Assembly: GCA_028701115.1 (NCBI GenBank)
Contig: JAQVRJ010000006.1
Span: 1-32,964, forward strand
Source: Clostridia bacterium
Lineage (GTDB): Bacteria > Bacillota > Clostridia > TANB77 > SIG350
Reading direction: 5' to 3'
DNA: 32,964 nt
Positions 1 to 32,964 of the stretch are shown piece after piece; position 1 is the first letter of the stretch, and each line of letters begins with the position of its first letter. The notes under the pieces were generated by a model. That model did not search any database. It saw only the letters and a program-made list of their open reading frames with translations, and was not told the DNA's origin. A program made the translations under genes and the position numbers.

Positions 1-83
1 TTCTTATTATCAATACATCCAGAACTCAGTACAATTGCAATTATAACAAGTATAATTACTGGGTAAATAAAACTTTTTTTCAT
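1..83 (-). CDS. Putative lipoprotein, N-terminal 27 codons only (gene continues past window start)
   Basis: Reverse complement of 83..1 reads ATG AAA AAA AGT TTT ATT ... = MKKSFIYPVIILVIIAIVLSSGCIDNK. This gives a Lys-rich n-region, a hydrophobic core and an LSSG|C lipobox-like motif. It is cut by the window edge, so it is absent from the ORF track. Confidence 0.5.
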   Translation of the reverse strand, partial: MKKSFIYPVIILVIIAIVLSSGCIDNK

Positions 84-347
84 ACATATATATTTTACAC
101 TTTTTTTTCATTTATGTCAACTTTTTTTGTAATATATTAACAATAATTACAATATTACCCTATATAATTAATTTATAAAAAAATACTTTCTTAATATAAC
201 AAATGTATAAAAAATAAAAATAATATCAATTAAAAAATTGTTATTATTTTTATGTCTCATTATATATAAATTTTGCTTTTTATATTCTTTCAATCAATTT
301 TGTTTCATCAAATATTTCACATTTTAAAAATGCTAGTAACCATTATT

Positions 348-2186
348 TTAAAGTGCTCCCCACAAGGCTGTACGGAACGAAACGCCGTCACGCGCTACAA
401 CCTCATCAGGGCTAAATCCAAACAAACCTGCCGCCTCACCAATGCCATAAAATCCACCACGTCCATGAAACGTAAGAGTTGAGTTAAGAAAACTAGAAAT
501 ATCTCCATACCATGATGTATTACCAGATGAACTTGTTGATGTCTCATATACCGCATCTCCATATCTATCTCCATATGATGTATAAGCATCATAATATTTC
601 GCATTTGCACTTCCAAAAGTATTTGCTACATTTGTACTTAATCCTGCTGCAACAAATTCCCATGCTCCTCCATTCATGTCAAAAACTACATATTTATTTC
701 CTGTTGTGCTTTGTGTTACACTTGCTCCTGTTATATAGTTTGAACTATTCATTCCAACTTGTACACCATGTCTACCATATTTACTTTGTGCTAAATACGC
801 TACAGCTCCCCATTCACAATTTCTAATTAAATGACTGTTATACTGTGTATACATATCTTTAGATTTCGTAAAACAATCTGCTACCGTTATACTTCTCCAA
901 CTCACTATTCCTGGTTTTGACTGTGGTACATTACTACCATTATTACTCATCTCATATTTTGCTACCCATATTCCTGCTAATTTCTTTTCTGTTCCATCAT
1001 TGTATCTAAATACTGGATGTATATTCCAATTACCCTGTCCTAATGCATTTTGAAATAATATTCTTCCTGTTTTTGATTCATCAGTTAATCCTTTCATAAA
1101 TTCTATATCTATTTTTCCTGAATTATTACTTTCTCTTGTTTGATCATGATATCCACTTGTTATACTATATGCATATCTTGGTATCCATACCCAATAACTT
1201 CCATCTGATGTTTTAGCATTTGCCCATTTACTTGATGTATAATCTGTTGCAAATAATGCTGTACTTCCTGTATAATCATACCAATCATTATATACAAAAT
1301 TAGAGTTTAATACTCCTTCATTATATTGGGCTATTTCATTACCATTTATATCCCAAATATACTGCTATCATTCCTGTATCTAGTTTTGGACTATTCACTC
1401 CTTTATCTGCATTATATGTTCCATCCATTGTTTCTGTATCCTCTAATGTTGTTGTTGAACACACAAGAGACTCCGTTGTATTGCCTAAACTATCTATCGC
1501 CATTACTTTTATACTATATTCTGTTTCTGGATCTAAATTTTCAAATATATAATTCGGATTTGTTGTTCCTTCTTCTGGTTCCCAAGTTATACCTCCATCC
1601 TTACTATATTTATACCTTACAGAATTTACTGATACCATTATTGTTTTACTTTCCGGTGTTATTACTGGCACTAAACTTCCTAATGCAATATTTTCGCCTT
1701 CATTTTCGCCTTCACTTAATGATCCTATTCCTATTGTATCTTTATCATAATAGATATTTCCTTCATATTCAAATCCTTGATAATATACTTTTCCTAATGT
1801 TGTTACATAATACTTTGATACCTCTGTTTCACTTATTGATAAATTATTTTTTAAACTTTCGTCTATTGATAATACATCTTTTCCTGCTATTTGTAATACA
1901 GATTCTGGTAATGCATCATTATTTTCTGCATTTGCTTCTGTATATCCTTGTATTACTCCTACCCATTTATATTTTTCTAAGTCACCTTCTGTTGTTGCAT
2001 ATTTAGCCATATTATTTAACATTTTTAAATTTATTGCGCTTCTTGCACTGTTGATATATTATTTAAAAATACTGCTAACTGTTCATTTTTGGGTGCGTTT
2101 ACTCCTGTTATTACAACTGCCGCAGTTAATATTATTAACACTATTATTGTTATTATTAACGCTACTAAACTTATTCCTTTTTTCAT
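348..2186 (-). pseudogene. Frameshifted paralogue of the pilin-leader / FGE-sulfatase (C-type lectin fold) surface protein at 31246..32964, carrying an extra FN3-like module
   Basis: Three collinear minus-strand frame segments. (a) 2186..2031 = MKKGISLVALIITIIVLIILTAAVVITGVNAPKNEQLAVFLNNISTVQEAQ, then TAA at 2031..2033; RBS GAGAGGGG lies upstream. (b) Track ORF 1339..2022, open upstream to 2058. (c) Track ORF 348..1097, which I read open upstream to ~1355 (WDINGNEIAQYNEGVLNSNFVYNDWYDYTGSTALFATDYTSSKWANAKTSDGSYWVWIPRYAYSITSGYHDQTRESNNSGKIDIEF-MKGL...). Joined, they are collinear with the intact 572-aa paralogue, sharing the blocks YKWVG, GVNSPKL, FVYNDWYDY, SKWANAKTSDGSYWVWIPR, NWNIHP and HLIRN. 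The frame breaks map to ~2031..2040 and to the A-run 1355..1357 (coding strand TATTTGGG here, TATTGGG in the paralogue). Confidence 0.75.
1691..1714 (-). repeat. Perfect 2 x 12-bp tandem duplication inside the pseudogene (encodes GENEGEN)
   Basis: Plus strand reads ttttcgccttca ttttcgccttca at 1691..1702 and 1703..1714. Confidence 0.9.
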
Positions 2187-2254
2187 TATATAACCCCTCT
2201 CATTTTTAACAAAAATACAAAATAAGATTTTATTTTTATTAAAAACTATAACAT

Positions 2255-2286
2255 ATAAAAAACATTTTAAACAACATTAATGTTTT
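2255..2286 (-). terminator. Weak candidate intrinsic terminator after the metal ABC operon
   Basis: Inverted repeat aaaacatt (2259..2266) / aatgtttt (2279..2286). On the minus-strand RNA it is followed by a U-run (plus-strand A-run 2255..2260). The stem is AT-rich and short. Confidence 0.3.
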
Positions 2287-2324
2287 ATATTATTTGCTAA
2301 AAAATAAAATTATTTTTATTTATT

Positions 2325-3122
2325 TTATCTTTTAAAACTCACTAAAAGCAAAGTCATTATATATACTATTCCTAAACAAACTACTATACTTGCTCCAGTA
2401 GGTATTGAAAAATAATATGAAACTATTAAACCAATTACACTCAGAATAATACAACTAATAGTAGAAATTATTATATATTGTTTCATATTTTTTGAAATCA
2501 TTTTAGATATAGCACCAGGTAAAATAAACAATGCACTTACTAATAATATACCAACAATATTAATTGACATTGCAACAGTTATTGCTACCATACTTGTAAA
2601 AATTATTTCATATAGCACAGGACTAATATTTTTACTTTTTGCTAACGATTCATCAACACTTATCAAAACTAGTTTTTTGTATATCAATAAAAATATAATA
2701 ATTAAAATTATTGCTAATATAGCTAATGGTAATAATTGATTTTGGGCAACTAATAAAATATCCCCTACAAGTAATTGAGAAAATTTCTGTAATCCACCAA
2801 AACCAGTTAAAATAATTATACCTACAGCTACACTTATTGATGCAATTATTCCAATAACGGTATCTGGCGCTTCCCCATATCTTCTTTTAATAATAACTAA
2901 TAATACTGCAAATAGAACTGAAAATATTACTACAGGTAACACATTATTAGTTGCTATACCTAATAGTAATCCAATACCTATTCCTAAATATGCACTATGA
3001 CCTAATGCATCAGAAAAATATGCAAGTCTATTATTTAACACCATAGTACTTAATAAACCAAATAATGGCGATATAATCAATATAAGTATCATTGCATTTT
3101 GCATAAATTCATACTCAAACAT
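2325..3122 (-). CDS. Metal (Zn/Mn/Fe-type) ABC transporter permease, ABC-3 family
   Basis: 265-aa polytopic membrane protein resembling ZnuB/MntB/TroD-type permeases. The ATG at 3122 has an AGGTGA RBS and overlaps the ATPase stop codon (ATGTTTGA arrangement). Confidence 0.85.
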   Translation of the reverse strand: MFEYEFMQNAMILILIISPLFGLLSTMVLNNRLAYFSDALGHSAYLGIGIGLLLGIATNNVLPVVIFSVLFAVLLVIIKRRYGEAPDTVIGIIASISVAVGIIILTGFGGLQKFSQLLVGDILLVAQNQLLPLAILAIILIIIFLLIYKKLVLISVDESLAKSKNISPVLYEIIFTSMVAITVAMSINIVGILLVSALFILPGAISKMISKNMKQYIIISTISCIILSVIGLIVSYYFSIPTGASIVVCLGIVYIMTLLLVSFKR

Positions 3123-3861
3123 TTATATCACCTACTTCAAATACTTTTTTAAATTCATCACTATCATAAACTTCTTTGGGACTTCCTTGTTTTAAAACTT
3201 TTTTATCCATTAAAATAACATTATCAGCATAATTATACATACTTTCTAAATCATGTGATACAACAATTATTGCTATATCAAAATTTTCTCTTAACGTAGA
3301 TATTATCTTATAAACTTGAGTTATTCCAATTCTATCAATATTAGCAATCGGTTCATCAAATAATAATATATCTGGGAATGGATTCATTGCTAATGCAATT
3401 AAAACTTTTTGAACCTCCCCACCAGATAGCTCACCCATTTTTTTATTTAATAAATCTGAAATTTTTAATATATCTATTACTTTTTTATAAACATTATTAT
3501 TTATATCTATTTTGGCAATATTTAAAACATCTTTAACAGATATAGGAATATTTTTTTCTACAGATATTTTTTGTGGCACATAACCAATAATTGGTTTTGA
3601 AGTAATATCATCATTTTTATTTAAATATGAAATACTTCCAGTATGTTTAGTCATACCTAATATAGATTTCAATAAAGTAGATTTACCCGCTCCATTAGGC
3701 CCTATAATACACGTTATTTCGCCACAATGCATATGAATATTAATATCATCAAGAATAATTCTATTATCAATTTTTACACTAATATTATTTATTTTTACAC
3801 AACACAATCCACAAGAATTATGTTTTGCAATATGAATTTTTCTTTCAGAATTATTTTCCAT
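3115..3861 (-). CDS. Metal ABC transporter ATP-binding protein
   Basis: Walker A GPNGAGKST, ABC signature LSGGEVQK, Walker B ILLFDEP. I prefer the ATG at 3861 (AAGGAAG RBS ~9 nt upstream) over the TTG at 3867 used by the track. The gene ends at TGA. Confidence 0.9.
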   Translation of the reverse strand: MENNSERKIHIAKHNSCGLCCVKINNISVKIDNRIILDDINIHMHCGEITCIIGPNGAGKSTLLKSILGMTKHTGSISYLNKNDDITSKPIIGYVPQKISVEKNIPISVKDVLNIAKIDINNNVYKKVIDILKISDLLNKKMGELSGGEVQKVLIALAMNPFPDILLFDEPIANIDRIGITQVYKIISTLRENFDIAIIVVSHDLESMYNYADNVILMDKKVLKQGSPKEVYDSDEFKKVFEVGDINV

Positions 3862-4750
3862 ATTCAATCGCTTCCTTTAAAACATTTATATTGTTTTGCA
3901 TTGATTCAATATATTGATTTAAATTATCTGTTGGTTCAACTATTAAATCTATAACAAATATTCTTGCATCTGTATTGCTATTTAGCATTTCAATTAAAGC
4001 TACATTTTCTTTATTAGTTTCACTATCTATTAATATAACTTTTGTATTTGTAGTATTAATTTTATCTATAAAACTCGCTATATCGCTTGCAACATAATTC
4101 CCCTCATGTATAGATAGTAATTCTGCTGAAATATTGAAAATCCCATCATTAGCAAAATATTTAAATGCATCATTTGTTATTGCAATATTAGTTTGACTAG
4201 ACACATTATTATATTCTTGCTTTAGCGCTAGCAACTTAGATATATATGAATCCATATTATCATAATACATATTTTGATTAAAAGGATCATTCTCAATTAT
4301 TTTTTCAGATATTAGCATAACTTGTGAAATATAATTATCAATATTCATCCAACAATGTTTAGATACATTAACATTAGGAATATTACTACTGGAATCAAAT
4401 ATTTCAAAATTATCAAAATATTCTTTATCCAAAAATTCTTCTATACTTTGTCCATTTTTAATAATTAAATCAGCTTCTTCAAATGTTTTCATATCTTTAG
4501 ATGTAAATTCATATTCATGAATACAACCGCCAACATTTTGAGATACATTAACACTATTTACCCCATTAACATTTTGTATTAAATTATTTACAATTAATTG
4601 TACTGGATAAAATGTTGTTACTATATCAAAATCTACATTTATATCTTTATTATTACTATTATTCAAAAAATTATTAACAGCTACTATTAAAATTATACTA
4701 ATAACAATTAATATTACTACTGATAATATTATTTTTTTATATTTTATCAT
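3851..4750 (-). CDS. Metal-binding solute-binding protein, TroA/ZnuA (cluster A-I) family, N-terminally membrane-anchored
   Basis: HEYEFTSKDMKTFEEADLIIKNG, KHCWMN and DAFKYF blocks match the family motifs (dpHeYe...aDl...NG, pHaWl, (H/E)xAFxYF). ATG at 4750 (MIKYKKIILSVV...) follows a GGTGGGTGGA RBS; the track start at 4774 is a TTG. The signal region has no Cys lipobox. Confidence 0.8.
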   Translation of the reverse strand: MIKYKKIILSVVILIVISIILIVAVNNFLNNSNNKDINVDFDIVTTFYPVQLIVNNLIQNVNGVNSVNVSQNVGGCIHEYEFTSKDMKTFEEADLIIKNGQSIEEFLDKEYFDNFEIFDSSSNIPNVNVSKHCWMNIDNYISQVMLISEKIIENDPFNQNMYYDNMDSYISKLLALKQEYNNVSSQTNIAITNDAFKYFANDGIFNISAELLSIHEGNYVASDIASFIDKINTTNTKVILIDSETNKENVALIEMLNSNTDARIFVIDLIVEPTDNLNQYIESMQNNINVLKEAIEYGK

Positions 4751-5882
4751 ATTTTTCCACCCACCATTTTGCAATTTGTTTTTTACTTAAACTTTTTATT
4801 TTATCAATATCTGTAATTACATTATCTTTTTCAATTTCGTTTGGAAGATTATCATCTATAATATAATTAAAATCTCTAACTAATCTAGTTATTTCTTGAC
4901 TCATCTCCAATGATTTAATCCATTCTTTTGTTACATTATCAAGTCCTTTATACAAACCTAAAATTTGACCAACTAATGTAGCTATATTATTTCCATAACA
5001 ACTATTATTTGCTGCAAATAATAGCGCTCTTGAAATATTATCTTTATATACTAAAGATGCATATAATGCTGCACCTAAAACTTCATGTGACTCATCACAT
5101 AATCCAAAGTCATCAAACTTTTCTGGATAATGTGTTTTATCTTTAGACATTTTTATTGCTAATTCTATTTTCTCTAGAACTTGTTCAGAATCTTCTGAAT
5201 CTTTTATAACTATTAATGCATCCGCTATACTCTTTTCTAATGTATCACCATTAGCAATACCAGCTATAATTATAGAATATGCACCAGCAGATAAATATGC
5301 TCTTGGATCATTATGAGTTAATTTAGCAATACTAACAGACATATCAAAAGCTAATTCCATCTCTTTACGAAATACAATTCCAAATGGCATAGCTTTAGTT
5401 ATTGCAGCAAATCCAGAATTATAATTTAATTCGGTAATTTCCTTTTCACTATAAACTTCATTTTCAAGTATATTTATCATTCTTTGTTCTGGACATCTTT
5501 CGCTCTTAAGTTCTTGAATAGAATTTAAATAACTGTCTTCTATCATCTTCATATCTATATATTTATTATATTCTCTTCCTTGATAAACTTGCCATCTCAA
5601 ATAATTATTATATGTAATTTTCCTAGTGATCTCTGTTTCCCTATGAATATGGTATCTAGTATAAGCTCTAATTAATGCATCAATAGTAAATATAGTTAAT
5701 TGAGTATTAGCTGTAATTCTTGCTCTTGAATCACAATCTAAAACTAAATCAGTTATTCCTTTTTTACCATAATCATCAATTATTAAATCAAAAGATAAAT
5801 CTCTAACCGGATAACCTAAAGCATCGCCAATTGCTCCACCAAATATACAATTATATATATTATTAATATCTAATTTTCTCAT
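4737..5882 (-). CDS. ADP-ribosylglycohydrolase (ARH/DraG) family protein with degenerate metal-binding motifs
   Basis: N-terminal FGGAIGDALGYPV is the family hallmark. The expected T-D-D-T motif reads ITANTQ. The C-terminal G-D-x-D-(S/T) motif reads YGNNIAT. The 3' end overlaps the start of the downstream solute-binding protein gene by 14 nt. Confidence 0.8.
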   Translation of the reverse strand: MRKLDINNIYNCIFGGAIGDALGYPVRDLSFDLIIDDYGKKGITDLVLDCDSRARITANTQLTIFTIDALIRAYTRYHIHRETEITRKITYNNYLRWQVYQGREYNKYIDMKMIEDSYLNSIQELKSERCPEQRMINILENEVYSEKEITELNYNSGFAAITKAMPFGIVFRKEMELAFDMSVSIAKLTHNDPRAYLSAGAYSIIIAGIANGDTLEKSIADALIVIKDSEDSEQVLEKIELAIKMSKDKTHYPEKFDDFGLCDESHEVLGAALYASLVYKDNISRALLFAANNSCYGNNIATLVGQILGLYKGLDNVTKEWIKSLEMSQEITRLVRDFNYIIDDNLPNEIEKDNVITDIDKIKSLSKKQIAKWWVEKYDKI

Positions 5883-6008
5883 ACTACCTCTCTTTCAATA
5901 AAATATTATACACCATATATTTCAAAATTTGTATACATTTTTAAATATTTTAATTATCTTTAATTATTATATATTGAAAGAAATATGTAATTATGATATA
6001 ATAAAATA

Positions 6009-6425
6009 GTGATAACTACTTTATCTACTAAGCAACCTGTTTCACTTATTGGTATGGGTTTCAATGAAATATGTGAAATGCATATTAACGGTAATGACGT
6101 AACGGAAAGTTTAAAAAAACTAAATTCTTTCTGTACTGATAATTACAAAATTAGCCATGATATGTTTTTGGCATGTTGTAACACCGTACAAAAAATAAAG
6201 AATAAGATTATTGCTGATTCATATAATGAACCAATTGAAGTCGAATTCAAATATTGTTGTATTGATTTGATTCCTAATGAAAAAGACTTAATGTCACAGA
6301 TGATTCCTATTGCATTAAATGCATATGGATTATACCTCAAAAACATTACTGGAAAAGAAATCTTGCCAAATGATAAAATTTCTTTTCATCATTTCAATTC
6401 TTATATAATCAGTTTAACTAAATAA
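6009..6425 (+). CDS. Hypothetical protein, 138 aa, Cys-rich, no recognised family
   Basis: Only a long ORF in an otherwise gene-free gap, followed by a good terminator. The start is uncertain: GTG at 6009 or ATG at 6054 (MGFNEICEMH). Confidence 0.5.
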   Translation: MITTLSTKQPVSLIGMGFNEICEMHINGNDVTESLKKLNSFCTDNYKISHDMFLACCNTVQKIKNKIIADSYNEPIEVEFKYCCIDLIPNEKDLMSQMIPIALNAYGLYLKNITGKEILPNDKISFHHFNSYIISLTK

Positions 6426-6452
6426 ACAAGGAAAATTTTCCTTGTTTATTTT
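6424..6452. terminator. Intrinsic terminator hairpin between convergent genes
   Basis: aaacaaggaa (6424..6433) pairs with ttccttgttt (6438..6447) around an AATT loop, then tatttt follows. It sits between the convergent 6009..6425 ORF and lgt. Confidence 0.7.
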
Positions 6453-6486
6453 CATATTATTTAATATATACATATTAGCTTCATAA

Positions 6487-7278
6487 TCATTTATCTATTA
6501 TATTTTTATTACCCTGTTTTACAATAAAACACGCTATTACTATTCCTAATAATACTATTAAAACTGATACTATTTGTGAAATTTTGAAATCGCAAATTAA
6601 TAATGAATCAGCTCTGAAAGATTCAACGATAAATCTGCCTACACCATAAACAATTAAATATATAGATAGTAACTGCCCATCGATTTTTTTTGTTTTACGC
6701 TTAATAAATAAATATATAAACAATGACAAAGTTATTAACATTTCATATAAAAATGTTGGATGAACATTTATATATCCACCATTGCTAAATATACTCATCT
6801 TCCAAAATACATCAGTTTGAATTCCATATGCTTCCTGATTTATAAAATTACCAATTCTACCAATACATTGTCCTAAACAAATATATGGAATAACTAAATC
6901 TGCTATTTTTAAAAAACTATACTTAAATTTTTTACATAATAAATATACAGTCAATGCGCCAACTATTAATCCACCATATATTGCTAAACCACCACTTCGA
7001 AAATCTAAAATATTTGCAAATGTTAATTCTAATGGTGAAAAAGCAATATAAAATAAACGTGCACCAAACACCCCCAAAACAGTTGTAGAAACAATTAGAA
7101 TAATAACATTATCTACATTTAGCTTTAATTTTTTTGTATCAATTATTATTAAAATTACAGCTAACAAATAGGCTAATGCAATTATTATTCCATACCAATA
7201 TATATCTATATTACATATTGGAAAAGCAATTCTATCTATTGTTATCCATAAATTAAAATTAGGAAATCCTATAGGCAT
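6487..7278 (-). CDS. lgt: Prolipoprotein diacylglyceryl transferase
   Basis: GGLAIYGGLIVG and GRIGNFINQEAYG are Lgt signature blocks in a polytopic membrane protein. ATG at 7278 (MPIGFPNF) is preceded by AAGGAG and abuts the M16 gene's stop codon. The track start at 7314 lies inside the upstream gene. Confidence 0.9.
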   Translation of the reverse strand: MPIGFPNFNLWITIDRIAFPICNIDIYWYGIIIALAYLLAVILIIIDTKKLKLNVDNVIILIVSTTVLGVFGARLFYIAFSPLELTFANILDFRSGGLAIYGGLIVGALTVYLLCKKFKYSFLKIADLVIPYICLGQCIGRIGNFINQEAYGIQTDVFWKMSIFSNGGYINVHPTFLYEMLITLSLFIYLFIKRKTKKIDGQLLSIYLIVYGVGRFIVESFRADSLLICDFKISQIVSVLIVLLGIVIACFIVKQGNKNIIDK

Positions 7279-14971: not shown

Positions 14972-16090
14972 TTACTTATTAAAATTCCATACCTTAATTT
15001 TATTTGCACTTTCAACTAATACAATGCTATCTTTTACAAATTCAATATTAGTAACATAGTTATAATCATTACCAGTTAATTCATATGTATTAAGTTTCTC
15101 TTTAGTATTTACATTATACACATCTACATAAACTTTGTTTTTTTCTGGATTTGAATAATCTTCAACTACTACCGCAATATATTTTGCATCAGAAGATAAA
15201 TATGACACATAATGTAATTTTTCATTTTCGGTTTTTTCTACATTAAATACTTCGGTTTTTTCTAACGTATCAATATTTAATTTCATTAATGGCATGTTTT
15301 CATATACATCAACATAATATATTAATGATTCATTATCATATAATAAATAGCCAGCATCATTTATAGAAACAAACTTATTATTTGTACCATCCATATTAAT
15401 AATACCAATACCCTTAACCCATTCATAACCGCATTTTAAATATATTATTTTATCACCAATAAAATCACTAGGATGATATGATTCTGAATCTCTAACATCA
15501 TCATTGCTAATCATTGTTTCAAATAATATTTTAGGATTTTCAAAACAAGGTTCAGATACAAATAATCCTTCATCTGTATTATATGTCCAATACTTATTAT
15601 CTGAAGATATTTTTATATTATATTTATAACCTACATCTTCACTAGTATTCTCAAGTTGCATTGTTTTATAATTTATATTATATAAAAATGTTGGATAAAC
15701 ATTAACTCCATATAATTCTTCATGGTAATAATCTGTACCTATAAAATATGCAAGATCATTTGATTTATCTATTCCAAGAAAATAGCAACCATTATCTATC
15801 TTTATACTATTTTTATTTAAGCCAGTATCCAAATTATATTTATAAATTTTAACTGTTACCATCAAATTATTATCATCGTAACCAGTTATTGGTTTAATCT
15901 CTCTATACTGTATAAAAAAATTTTTATCATCAATTTTTGTTACAGCATCAATTACTAAGTTTTCTGCCTCCTCTATATTTTCTGTATTAAATGTAATAAA
16001 TTCTTCAACTGGTTTATTAAATATACTAGTTACATATAATAATACAATTATTACTATTAACACCAATAAAACATAAATAAGTTTTTTCAT
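14972..16090 (-). CDS. Membrane-anchored hypothetical protein, probable beta-propeller (PD40/TolB-like repeats)
   Basis: N-terminal signal-anchor MKKLIYVLLVLIVIIVLLYV. Recurring S-x-D-x-K-Y motifs (SSDNKYWTYNTDEGLFV, LSSDAKYIAVVVED) resemble PD40 blades. No catalytic motif was recognised. Confidence 0.6.
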   Translation of the reverse strand: MKKLIYVLLVLIVIIVLLYVTSIFNKPVEEFITFNTENIEEAENLVIDAVTKIDDKNFFIQYREIKPITGYDDNNLMVTVKIYKYNLDTGLNKNSIKIDNGCYFLGIDKSNDLAYFIGTDYYHEELYGVNVYPTFLYNINYKTMQLENTSEDVGYKYNIKISSDNKYWTYNTDEGLFVSEPCFENPKILFETMISNDDVRDSESYHPSDFIGDKIIYLKCGYEWVKGIGIINMDGTNNKFVSINDAGYLLYDNESLIYYVDVYENMPLMKLNIDTLEKTEVFNVEKTENEKLHYVSYLSSDAKYIAVVVEDYSNPEKNKVYVDVYNVNTKEKLNTYELTGNDYNYVTNIEFVKDSIVLVESANKIKVWNFNK

Positions 16091-16240: not shown

Positions 16241-16669
16241 TTATTTACTATAGAAGATTAAATCTGGTTCAAATCCTATAATTGTAGAATCTGCTCCAAC
16301 AAAGTAATCTTTACTACTAGAATTTAGCGTTGGCACAAATGCTCTAAACCCGTTATGAACAGACCCATCAAAACTATTAAGCATATTTGCATAATTAGCA
16401 GATACATTATCATATAAATGTGGTGTTGCTAAAAAGCTTTTTACAAAAGCAACTAGCACTTCCTCATTTATAGCAAATTCTGGCATAATTAGCTTAAATC
16501 GTTTTTCCTTAAAGCATCCCAAATATAGTTTATTCTCATGAAGTGAATAATACGATGGTAAACCCTTCATTTCATATAAACGTATAGCACAATTAAGTAT
16601 AATACCTAATTCTTCATCTGTGCATCCATTGATTTCAAATTTTTGTTCAGAACTATACATTATAGTCAC
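16241..16669 (-). CDS. Hypothetical protein, 142 aa, no recognised family
   Basis: Long ORF on the same strand as its neighbours, with no signal peptide. The function call is not supportable. Confidence 0.5.
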   Translation of the reverse strand: MTIMYSSEQKFEINGCTDEELGIILNCAIRLYEMKGLPSYYSLHENKLYLGCFKEKRFKLIMPEFAINEEVLVAFVKSFLATPHLYDNVSANYANMLNSFDGSVHNGFRAFVPTLNSSSKDYFVGADSTIIGFEPDLIFYSK

Positions 16670-31245: not shown

Positions 31246-32964
31246 CTAATTAACCCATAAAGTAATTCTTGTATATCCAAAACCAGTAACATCACTTGAT
31301 GCTGAATCACCTGCACAATGTGAATGACTATATCCGAAACTTTGATATCTTACAAGTGAATGACATCTTGTATCTCCATTACATGTAAACCCTTGAGAGC
31401 CTCTAGCTCCCCAATTACTTGTACCTCCATAACTATGTGCTCCCTGTGTTGAACTTATTTCATAAATTGCAGCTCCATATGGTTCATATCCATATGTTCC
31501 ATAGATTTCTTTATACTTTGCATCGGCAGTCGCTATAGATGTCCAACCTGTTGGTGTTCCTGCTGTACAATACAAAGCTACAGTATGTGAACAACACCAA
31601 TCGTAAACTCCAGATGCATTACCATTTGAACTATATTGTGTATTCGTTGTAGCTATTGCATTTTGTGAATGTCCAGCATATTGCGTTTGGCAAGTAGCTG
31701 ACCAAGCCATAGTACCATTTCTTCCATGTGCGCTATGAGCTAAATATGATACTGCTGCATATTCTATATTTCTTATTAAATGGCTATCTAAATCATTTAT
31801 ACCAATTCCTTCATTATAATATAAAGCAGAATTAAACTGAACATTAAAAGTTCTCATTTGTGACCAGTATTGTATACCAGGCTTTGATACCAATCTATAA
31901 TATGTACTATTACCTGCAGCTTTTGTTAATTGATACGTAACATTTGATGGTACCCATGTTGAACCTTCATCTGAACTATATTCTTGTGATGACATATATT
32001 TCATAATCCAATAACCGGGTATTTGTGTAGTATTACTAGCTGAATCGGTATAATAAAATGCTGGATGTATATTCCATTTGTTTTCGCCTAACACATTATT
32101 CCATGTTGTATTATCACTTGCCCCAACATCAGAAGTTCCCTTTAAAAAATCAATTGCAATTGGACCAGCTGTAGCAGCATGAAATCCGCTTTGAATATTA
32201 TATGCAAATCTTGGTATCCAAACCCAATAACTACCATCGCTAGTTTTAGCATTTGCCCATTTACTTTCTAAATAATCTGTACCAAAATCTAAACTTGTTT
32301 TTGAATAATCATACCAATCATTATATACAAAATTTGCATCATTACCAGTAATTTCATTCCCATTAGAATCCCAATAAACAGCAACCATACCTTGTGCTAA
32401 TTTAGGACTATTTACTCCTTTTAAAGTATTAAATGATCCATCAGTTGGGCCTTCAGCTATATTAGGTGTAGGTTCAGGACTAGTTGCAGGTATAGTTTCA
32501 GATGTTACTAATCTATTATAATATGTTATACCATCATATAAAAAACCATCATAATATACAATTCCATTACTATCTACATAATATTTATCAAATTCCTCAT
32601 CTGAAATTGACATATTATTTTTTACAATAAAATCTATTTTAGCAACATTTATTCCTTGTATCACAGCATCATTAAAAGATGGCATTATTCCTTCTTCAGC
32701 GCTATTCTCAGTATATTGATTTACAATTCCTACCCATTTATATTTTTCTAATTCAGCTCCACTATTTAATACATAGTGAGTAAGATTGGTATTCCTTTTT
32801 AATATTACAGCGTCTTGAACATTTGAAATATTATTATAAAATACAGCAAGCTGTGCTTCTGGCATTATTTCAAATCCAGTTAACACCGCTGCAGCCGTTA
32901 ATATTATTAATACAATTATTGTTATAATTAATGCAATTAAACTTATTCCTTTTTTTATTTTCAT
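31246..32964 (-). CDS. Surface protein with type IV pilin-like N-terminal leader and C-terminal FGE-sulfatase / C-type-lectin-fold domain (intact paralogue)
   Basis: The ATG sits exactly at the window end (32964). MKIKKG|ISLIALIITIIVLIILTAAAV resembles a prepilin cleavage/methylation leader (KG|FTLIE...), but with Ala in place of Glu at +5. The C-terminal half (NKWNIHPAF...HLIRNIEYAAVSYLAHSAHGRNG...GVYDW...FGYTRITLW) aligns by eye to the WRLPTEAEWEYAAR / GNVWEW / RGG / GFR blocks of PF03781-type domains. It is collinear with the pseudogene at 348..2186. Confidence 0.8.
   Translation of the reverse strand: MKIKKGISLIALIITIIVLIILTAAAVLTGFEIMPEAQLAVFYNNISNVQDAVILKRNTNLTHYVLNSGAELEKYKWVGIVNQYTENSAEEGIMPSFNDAVIQGINVAKIDFIVKNNMSISDEEFDKYYVDSNGIVYYDGFLYDGITYYNRLVTSETIPATSPEPTPNIAEGPTDGSFNTLKGVNSPKLAQGMVAVYWDSNGNEITGNDANFVYNDWYDYSKTSLDFGTDYLESKWANAKTSDGSYWVWIPRFAYNIQSGFHAATAGPIAIDFLKGTSDVGASDNTTWNNVLGENKWNIHPAFYYTDSASNTTQIPGYWIMKYMSSQEYSSDEGSTWVPSNVTYQLTKAAGNSTYYRLVSKPGIQYWSQMRTFNVQFNSALYYNEGIGINDLDSHLIRNIEYAAVSYLAHSAHGRNGTMAWSATCQTQYAGHSQNAIATTNTQYSSNGNASGVYDWCCSHTVALYCTAGTPTGWTSIATADAKYKEIYGTYGYEPYGAAIYEISSTQGAHSYGGTSNWGARGSQGFTCNGDTRCHSLVRYQSFGYSHSHCAGDSASSDVTGFGYTRITLWVN

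Follow-up and report, generated by a model that had tools for sequence, protein, structure and literature searches.

The last codons of a gene read from the minus strand of a 32,964-nt contig (GenBank JAQVRJ010000006.1; the whole of this stretch is referred to below as the window), which belongs to the metagenome-assembled genome (MAG) GCA_028701115.1 of a Clostridia bacterium, are homologous to the variable regions (VRs) of genes diversified by diversity-generating retroelements (DGRs). This block is probably itself the VR of a DGR target gene, now persisting as a relic in an allele disrupted by two frameshifts. The initial annotation, made from the sequence of the window, had proposed a candidate DGR variable region at positions 348..470; homology, protein fold and nucleotide composition bear this proposal out, but the region appears to be a relic rather than a site that is currently being diversified. 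In the MAG (locus tags PHH22_), the family is represented by protein MDD4066561.1 and at least three further paralogues.

The stretch 348..2186 had been taken for one gene, but it consists of three open reading frame (ORF) fragments, 2186..2031, 2022..1339 and 1337..348, with two frameshifts between them. The features of the locus are listed below, where L073 and L074 denote two other alleles of the same locus and TR is the template repeat of a DGR:

351..500, minus strand: VR-homologous block, 150 nt encoding ISSFLNSTLTFHGRGGFYGIGEAAGLFGFSPDEVVARDGVSFRTALWGAL; A-poor and GC-rich, with a gapless codon alignment to the TR core and the verified VRs of relatives
351..365, minus strand: VR 3' end, TTGTGGGGAGCACTT, a candidate element resembling those for the initiation of mutagenic homing (IMH); TR/VR homology stops here in relatives
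348..1337, minus strand: C-terminal ORF fragment, 329 aa, with a C-type-lectin (CLec)/FGE-like domain ending in the VR, as predicted by modelling and Foldseek
1339..2022, minus strand: middle ORF fragment, 227 aa, with a weak Fn3-like match (Pfam hits below the cut-offs)
2031..2186, minus strand: N-terminal ORF fragment, 51 aa, MKKGISLVALIITIIVLIILTAAVVITG..., a pilin-like hydrophobic leader judging from its sequence
2038..2039, minus strand: +2 nt (GC) frameshift relative to L073 and L074, GC>GCGC, from the alignment
1357, minus strand: +1 nt (T) frameshift relative to L073 and L074, TT>TTT, from the alignment
1..347, minus strand: downstream flank and start of the next gene (MKKSFIYPVIILVIIAIVLSSGC...), from the comparison with L074

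The compositional anomaly of 348..470 is real and far exceeds what chance would give. This block has, on its coding (minus) strand, 19 A in 123 nt (15.4%), 35% G, 33% T and 16% C, which gives a G+C content of 51.2%, against 39.2% A and 33.3% G+C over the remainder of this reading frame (471..1097) and 27.1% G+C in the whole 33-kb window. The A depletion and GC enrichment described by the initial annotation are thus accurate, and the codon string quoted in it is the exact minus-strand reading from 461 down to 348. When all 111-nt segments of the coding strand are compared, the minimum of the A fraction (13.5%) and the maximum of the G+C content (55%) both lie at about 465–472; 0.07% of the segments are as A-poor as the block and 0.009% are as GC-rich. 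In a 100-nt profile, the G+C fraction is 0.54 at 351..450 versus 0.09–0.36 on both flanks.

The gene belongs to a bona fide DGR target family. A search of a collection of 5.8 billion proteins found 2,944 relatives, and a search performed without a word index returned 2,949 clusters at 50% identity. At 63 loci from species-representative genomes, relatives sharing 30–45% identity occur in many copies per genome, and a DGR-type reverse transcriptase (RT; motif GNYTSQ...YMDD) adjoins a family member at five of these loci. Full-length relatives are built of three parts, namely a hydrophobic pilin-like leader (MKKGISLVALIITIIVLIIL...), a variable spacer and a conserved C-terminal domain, whose last ~40 residues are hypervariable on the fixed scaffold RGG.Y....AG.F.F.........SFR.VLWG. 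The cassettes accompanying relatives, several of which include a small MutS-like protein (MSL), are organised as follows:

L012: target (514 aa), TR, RT (RVT_1), bAvd and a MutS domain I protein (MutS_I); TR and VR differ at 14 A sites and at 0 non-A sites
L080, and L107 from another sample: target–VR–TR–MSL, followed in L107 by an apparent Avd gene start; mismatches at 22 of 39 A sites and 1 of 111 non-A sites
L108: MSL–bAvd–RT–TR with the VR on the opposite strand; the TR/VR pair was seen in the translated peptides and its differences are uncounted

One further relative (L087) has a VR backed by a TR and an RT. In length and register the window block agrees with the VRs of relatives, with 30 codons from RGG to SFR, and its proposed homology to DGR targets is confirmed by the in-register alignment to verified VRs, those of L012, L080/L107 and L087. 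Variation among 12 VRs of the clade is concentrated where the template has adenine: the entropy is 1.34 bits at TR-A sites versus 0.67 bits elsewhere (p = 7e-10).

The L080 locus originates from the same metagenome as a contig identical to the window. Its MSL gene is truncated by an IS30-like element (HTH_38 and rve domains, itself split), and no RT is present on the contig. The L080 sequence (1-7042, Ga0265294_10019570) amounts to 1.74 copies of a 4047-bp unit and runs through the target, the TR, the truncated MSL gene and then the target again; a circle, a tandem duplication or an assembly loop are all conceivable explanations of this structure.

Comparison of the window VR with the TR of this lineage (L080/L107) revealed mismatches at 27 of the 39 A sites and at 38 of the 111 non-A sites (odds ratio 4.3, p = 1.5e-4), many of the latter being third-position changes. 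None of the 14 Asn codons (AAY) of the TR is an Asn codon in the window VR (0/14), and the third-position pyrimidine is kept in 12 of these 14 codons versus 41% in the gene body (p ~ 8e-4, a binomial estimate). Judging from this codon comparison, the window VR bears the footprint of an AAY-rich template. At the same time, the 38 mismatches at non-A sites indicate that it was not written from the lineage TR.

The lineage TR has 43% G+C and 26% A, its two fitting VRs have 51–53% G+C and 11–13% A, and the window VR core, with 48% G+C and 16% A, resembles the latter; the window bases at TR-A sites are G (14), A (12), T (7) and C (6). Replacement of template adenines by any base in an AT-rich genome raises the G+C content and lowers the A content; therefore, the initial suggestion that the composition of the block was set by a template and by adenine mutagenesis agrees well with these values.

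At the protein level, the C-terminal domain was modelled by AlphaFold with a pLDDT of 91.9 and a pTM of 0.92 when 78 diverse sequences were supplied, after an input of 50 close homologues had given a pLDDT of 32. A Foldseek search against the PDB identified the Thermus variable protein TaqVP (5VF4) as the best match (E = 7e-11, probability 1.00), followed by Mtd (1YU0, E = 8e-4), FGE (6XTQ, E = 1e-3) and TvpA (2Y3C, E = 5e-3). The sequence profile of the family also matched 5VF4 (E = 3e-5), its sole significant match in the PDB, and the identity of 5VF4 as the Thermus DGR variable protein TaqVP was confirmed from the literature. A C-type-lectin/FGE fold with the block at its extreme C-terminus had been anticipated, and the model supports this placement. 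The assignment to FGE-sulfatase holds at the level of the fold, but not as a Pfam match: a Pfam scan of the C-terminal 329 residues yielded no hit, including FGE-sulfatase (PF03781), which was detected below the threshold in 20 of 50 relatives (best E = 1.8e-4).

The middle fragment gave Pfam matches to fn3 (E = 1.6e-4) and FN3_DSCAM (E = 1.3e-5), both below the cut-offs. The prepilin motif consists of G|F/I-T-L-x-E followed by a hydrophobic helix; in the leader of the window protein, KKG|ISLVALIITIIVLIIL, the Gly and the hydrophobic helix are present, and position +5 is Ala instead of Glu. Weak leader matches include N_methyl in 11 of 50 family members, the GspG N-terminus (E = 0.0026, a hit falling far short of the cut-off), and PilE1 8pfb (E = 0.059). 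The leader sequence thus weakly resembles those of type IV/type II pseudopilins, and incorporation of the protein into a pilus is only putative. No pilus genes were found in the window by a Pfam scan of its proteins.

Allelic versions of the window locus show directly where the variation is located. Three versions, L071, L073 and L074, were recovered from the JGI metagenome 3300028602 (Ga0265294). L071 is the same as the window across the gene, including both frameshifts. L073, which shares its contig with L006, shows 5.1% divergence across the gene body (2186..701), carries one different frameshift and has nearly the same VR. L074 aligns through both flanks, contains an intact 613-aa gene and carries a different VR. 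The divergence between the window and L074 is 6.9% in the gene body (2186..701), 20.5% in 700..501, 44.7% in the VR core (500..351) and 0.3% in the 346 nt downstream (VR core versus gene body, p = 1e-31). The hypervariability is confined to the VR, as is expected of a DGR target. Over the downstream flank (1..347) the two alleles are 99.7% identical, a single mismatch being present in 346 nt; the hypervariable tract therefore ends, on its 3' side, at the stop codon. A hairpin or cruciform downstream of the gene was not significant (z = -1.55).

The VR of L074 fits the TR of L080, with mismatches at 20 of 39 A sites and only 4 of 111 non-A sites (p = 1e-10), this TR being located on a different contig of the same metagenome; the VRs of L074 and L080 differ from each other at 20 sites with a template A and at 3 without (p = 2e-11). 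It follows that in at least one strain of the species this locus was written by a DGR, and in trans, which agrees with the earlier suggestion that any DGR would have to act from elsewhere. L074 (1-3100, corresponding to window 1..2467) is a mosaic: it is window-like up- and downstream, and between these parts it contains an L080-like tract of ~310 nt, about twice the TR-homologous 150 nt. Since this tract is longer than the TR homology, paralogue gene conversion also contributed to L074. We infer that L074 is not a chimeric assembly, as its 3' junction shares only ~9 nt between the putative parents. The strains are also mosaic in the flanks of the locus.

The window allele, on the other hand, is static. 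Compared with L073, it diverges by 3.3% in the VR core and by 4.9% over the remainder of the gene (2186..501; p = 0.55), and TR-A sites account for 0 of the 5 changes in the VR; with the L071 sequence being identical, the strain-level variability of the block that had been expected as a sign of diversification was not observed. VRs of other paralogues are likewise as conserved between orthologues from different samples as the gene bodies (89.3% versus 88.1% and 92.0% versus 90.5%), and paralogue P0008 is identical in at least four samples. Window-type sequence is shared by the NCBI MAG and two series of JGI samples: L072, which comes from a different series than L071, matches the window at 99.9% identity without gaps in an alignment ending at window position 355.

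Both frameshifts are common to the window and L071, and L072 aligns across both positions gap-free. A 249-aa ORF with at least 90% identity is present on an ENA contig (P0300), and an identical ORF is annotated in the NCBI MAG. Assembly errors were considered as a source of the frameshifts and rejected, given their recurrence in L071, L072 and the ORF calls of the NCBI MAG and the ENA contig. In the intact orthologue L074, the middle fragment is contiguous with both of its neighbours. Frameshifts in short repeats inactivate the gene independently in two alleles, namely the window (TT>TTT and GC>GCGC) and L073 (an extra A in a poly-A run near window position 2092), and the third allele is intact.

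The window allele also differs where the VR terminates. The VRs of L080 and L074 finish with TTGTGGGGGGCACTT, and the TR reads TTGTGGGGGGCACTC and then diverges. The window has the form GTGGGGAGCACTT versus GTGGGGGGCACT in the TR and the fitting VRs. The 3' G-run is GGGGAG in the window, where an A interrupts it, versus GGGGGG in the TR and its two fitting VRs (lineage variant GGGGGGCAC versus window variant GGGGAGCAC). To judge from this comparison, the G-run may have a role in homing.

Based on these data, the following scenario is considered the most likely. The gene would encode a surface-type protein in which a hydrophobic pilin-like leader and an Fn3-like spacer precede a C-terminal ligand-binding domain of the C-type-lectin/FGE fold, the last ~50 codons encoding the diversified surface. 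The DGR of the family is made up of an RT, bAvd and the MSL; the A-rich TR would be copied into cDNA with misincorporation opposite adenines, and the mutated cDNA would replace the 3' end of the target gene. In this process AAY (Asn) codons would turn into many others, and an AT-rich genome would be left with an A-depleted, GC-enriched tract. The window VR itself was presumably written by a DGR, from a TR related to the recovered one but not the same, and the DGR presumably acted in trans. Two frameshifts would then have been fixed and the match to the TR lost, including the 3' G-run, with no rewriting since the strains diverged by ~5%; the VR presumably froze because it no longer matched the TR or had lost the 3' element.

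Several observations weigh against this scenario. The 38 of 111 non-A mismatches leave the DGR origin of the window VR to be argued from homology and statistical footprints. A TR fitting the window VR was detected neither in the window nor among the 112 fetched loci or the viral contigs, and none of the best 120 of 5,868 RT relatives is attributable to the accession range of the window MAG. In this family 3' ends are transferred by paralogue gene conversion as well, a process that may have had a part in the window VR. Finally, the frozen state is deduced from consensus assemblies.

The searches behind these results were as follows. An ungapped scan for a TR, in which A was treated as a wildcard, was applied to both strands of the window with the full block and with 40-nt sub-blocks, and returned only background matches in A-rich DNA. 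The neighbouring genes being housekeeping ones, the initial statement that the window contains no RT, Avd or TR proved correct. A template copy matching the block save at adenines, which had been suggested as a search object elsewhere in the genome, was not detected in the window, the 112 loci or the viral contigs; scanning every fetched locus with each VR of the clade retrieved a TR only for L080 and L074. In viral contigs there was no match to a semi-degenerate 3' pattern, to the 3' end of the L080 TR or to the MSL protein. The 5,868 RT relatives were obtained with the L108 RT as query; the contigs with the nearest RTs, L110-L112, carry a GreA-GH18-HTH-MSL-Avd-RT locus of other organisms with no fitting TR.

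Given that L074 was evidently written from a TR located elsewhere, one could suppose that the window copy is still an active remote target, with an RT/Avd/MSL/TR cassette elsewhere in the genome, its TR unsampled, continuing to rewrite 351..500 in trans. Non-phage DGRs with remote targets have been described (Wu et al., PMC5758913), the A depletion and GC enrichment of the block match those of the TR-fitting VRs, and the searches covered only the window contig of the MAG. We nevertheless consider continued rewriting unlikely: the VR core is no more diverged from that of L073 than the gene body, with no differences at TR-A sites, the two frameshifts recur in independent assemblies, the identical sequence is present in two JGI sample series and the NCBI MAG, and the 3' G-run differs from that of the sole TR known in the lineage. 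The mosaic structure of L074 points in another direction, as it shows that paralogue tracts longer than a TR can replace the 3' end at this very locus. The window block could accordingly be a recombination patch, acquired by paralogue gene conversion or horizontal transfer and having the composition of its donor, in a family that is highly multicopy and often arranged in tandem arrays and in strains that are mosaic in their flanks. This is quite improbable, since no donor carrying the window VR is present among the 12 VRs of the clade or at the other loci, and the tract just upstream (~501..690) is native to the window's own subfamily, matching, for example, P0002; besides, a donor VR would itself be a DGR product, which would change the route of the block but not its origin.

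If the lack of a TR or RT in the window and the mismatch of most clade VRs to the one recovered TR are taken at face value, the block may be viewed as an ordinary fast-evolving ligand-binding loop under diversifying selection, in which no retroelement was involved and the composition is an accident of codon choice. Such an explanation is hardly credible in view of the strictly A-specific TR/VR pairs found beside an RT and bAvd in the same family and at the same position, the concentration of variation at template-A sites, the composition, which is the extreme of the 33 kb, and the fold, which is that of DGR variable proteins. Therefore, a VR of DGR origin that became a relic in a frameshifted allele remains the preferred explanation.

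Beyond the origin of the block, one could hypothesise, as a rather unlikely possibility, that the DGR of this lineage is not a continuous diversifier but a generator of a heritable repertoire, acting through rare rewriting, spread by duplication and conversion, and freezing. Rewriting would affect a single TR-linked 'master' copy and, from time to time, a remote locus like that of the window; gene duplication and paralogue gene conversion would spread the products, and most copies would lose the match to the end of the TR and freeze. Each genome would then hold at least 10 pilin-like adhesin genes, each with a fixed, distinct binding tip, and single copies would be switched off by frameshifts in short repeats, two in the window and one, in a poly-A run, in L073. 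The window gene would then be a silenced library cassette rather than a case of mere decay.

The family is strongly multicopy in other organisms. The 11.6-kb contig of L007 (1-11591, GCA_043956595.1) is full of genes of 520–600 aa, with at least four tandem paralogues carrying different VRs and no RT, and the rabbit-gut MAG Lapin-018__bin73 (among L010-L068) has at least 15 family loci. Giant family proteins have up to 13 matched domain stretches (P0304, 4340 aa). In several related metagenomic organisms a conserved chromosomal neighbourhood, GreA - hypothetical - GH18 - (HTH) - MSL - bAvd - RT, was observed at the following loci:

L108: 4435-11943
L110: 2172-7976
L111: 3742-9125
L112

This arrangement suggests that the GreA-GH18-MSL-bAvd-RT neighbourhood is a vertically inherited, non-phage DGR.

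In the window, the broken gene is surrounded by housekeeping genes, including those for SecY, a Clp-type double-AAA ATPase, PFK and an RluA-type pseudouridine synthase, and a cluster of small ORFs resembles by appearance a ribosomal-protein operon. Three ORFs located among the housekeeping genes on the minus strand (14972..16090, 16241..16669 and 31246..32964; 372, 142 and 572 aa, respectively) have no Pfam match. The downstream gene (1..83, minus strand) starts with MKKSFIYPVIILVIIAIVLSSGC, a signal peptide ending in Cys; it thus looks lipoprotein-like, as the initial annotation had stated, though Ser instead of Leu occupies position -3. The orthologue of this gene in L006 encodes 299 aa and has no Pfam hit. 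Scans of the window for tRNA genes and Rfam families gave no match.

The results obtained show that a compositional anomaly alone, such as an A-poor, GC-rich tail of a gene in an AT-rich genome, can flag a DGR VR whose RT and TR lie outside the available sequence. The catalogue of DGRs gains a large target family of ~2,900 clusters at 50% identity, often multicopy and combining a pilin-like leader with a CLec-fold C-terminus. Most VRs in the lineage are frozen, and at one locus live-looking and dead alleles coexist in the same community, which bears on the question of how often DGR targets truly diversify and how often they merely carry the scar. No new mechanism is revealed, as MSL-containing DGRs and remote targets have already been described (Wu et al., PMC5758913).

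Among known systems, the founding DGR target, Mtd of Bordetella phage BPP-1 (1YU0), resembles the window system in its CLec fold and the C-terminal position of its VR, as well as in having a TR with AAY codons and substitutions specific to adenines. However, Mtd is a phage tail-fibre protein and a single target adjacent to its DGR, while the window gene is a chromosomal member of a multicopy cellular family and has housekeeping genes as neighbours. TvpA of Treponema denticola (2Y3C), a lipoprotein, has the FGE-type CLec fold and a C-terminal VR, as the window protein does. In Treponema, one DGR serves several targets far from the RT (Wu et al., PMC5758913), and L074, whose VR fits a TR on another contig, is similar to these remote targets. 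The remote VRs of Treponema all match their TR, unlike most paralogue VRs of the window lineage, including that of the window, and the accessory gene of the Treponema DGR is HRDC (Wu et al., PMC5758913), while MSL and bAvd are found in the window lineage.

MSL-containing DGRs, including that of Legionella, were classified as 'Architecture D' (Wu et al. 2018, PMC5758913). The cassettes of relatives of the window gene are similar to this type in carrying a small MutS domain I protein with bAvd and RT, although none of the MSL, bAvd and RT genes is present in the window. The gene orders in relatives are target-TR-MSL-Avd (L080/L107) and MSL-Avd-RT-TR with the target on the opposite strand (L108).

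DGR-diversified pilus adhesins, namely type V pili of Bacteroides and rare 'GspG-type pilin' domains with a VR, have also been described (PMC11661182). In these systems, diversification by the DGR is directed at the tip or adhesive module of a surface protein resembling a pilus, which is similar in idea to the window system; unlike them, the window protein has a leader that is only weakly pseudopilin-like and its gene has no pilus machinery nearby.

The closest structural counterpart is TaqVP of Thermus aquaticus (5VF4). It shares only ~14% identity with the window protein, lacks a pilin-like leader and an Fn3 spacer, and has a cognate TR and RT, while the window copy is frameshifted and has no TR or RT in view. 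Nevertheless, both proteins combine a CLec/FGE-like fold with a C-terminal VR, and TaqVP is the best structural match of the window domain.

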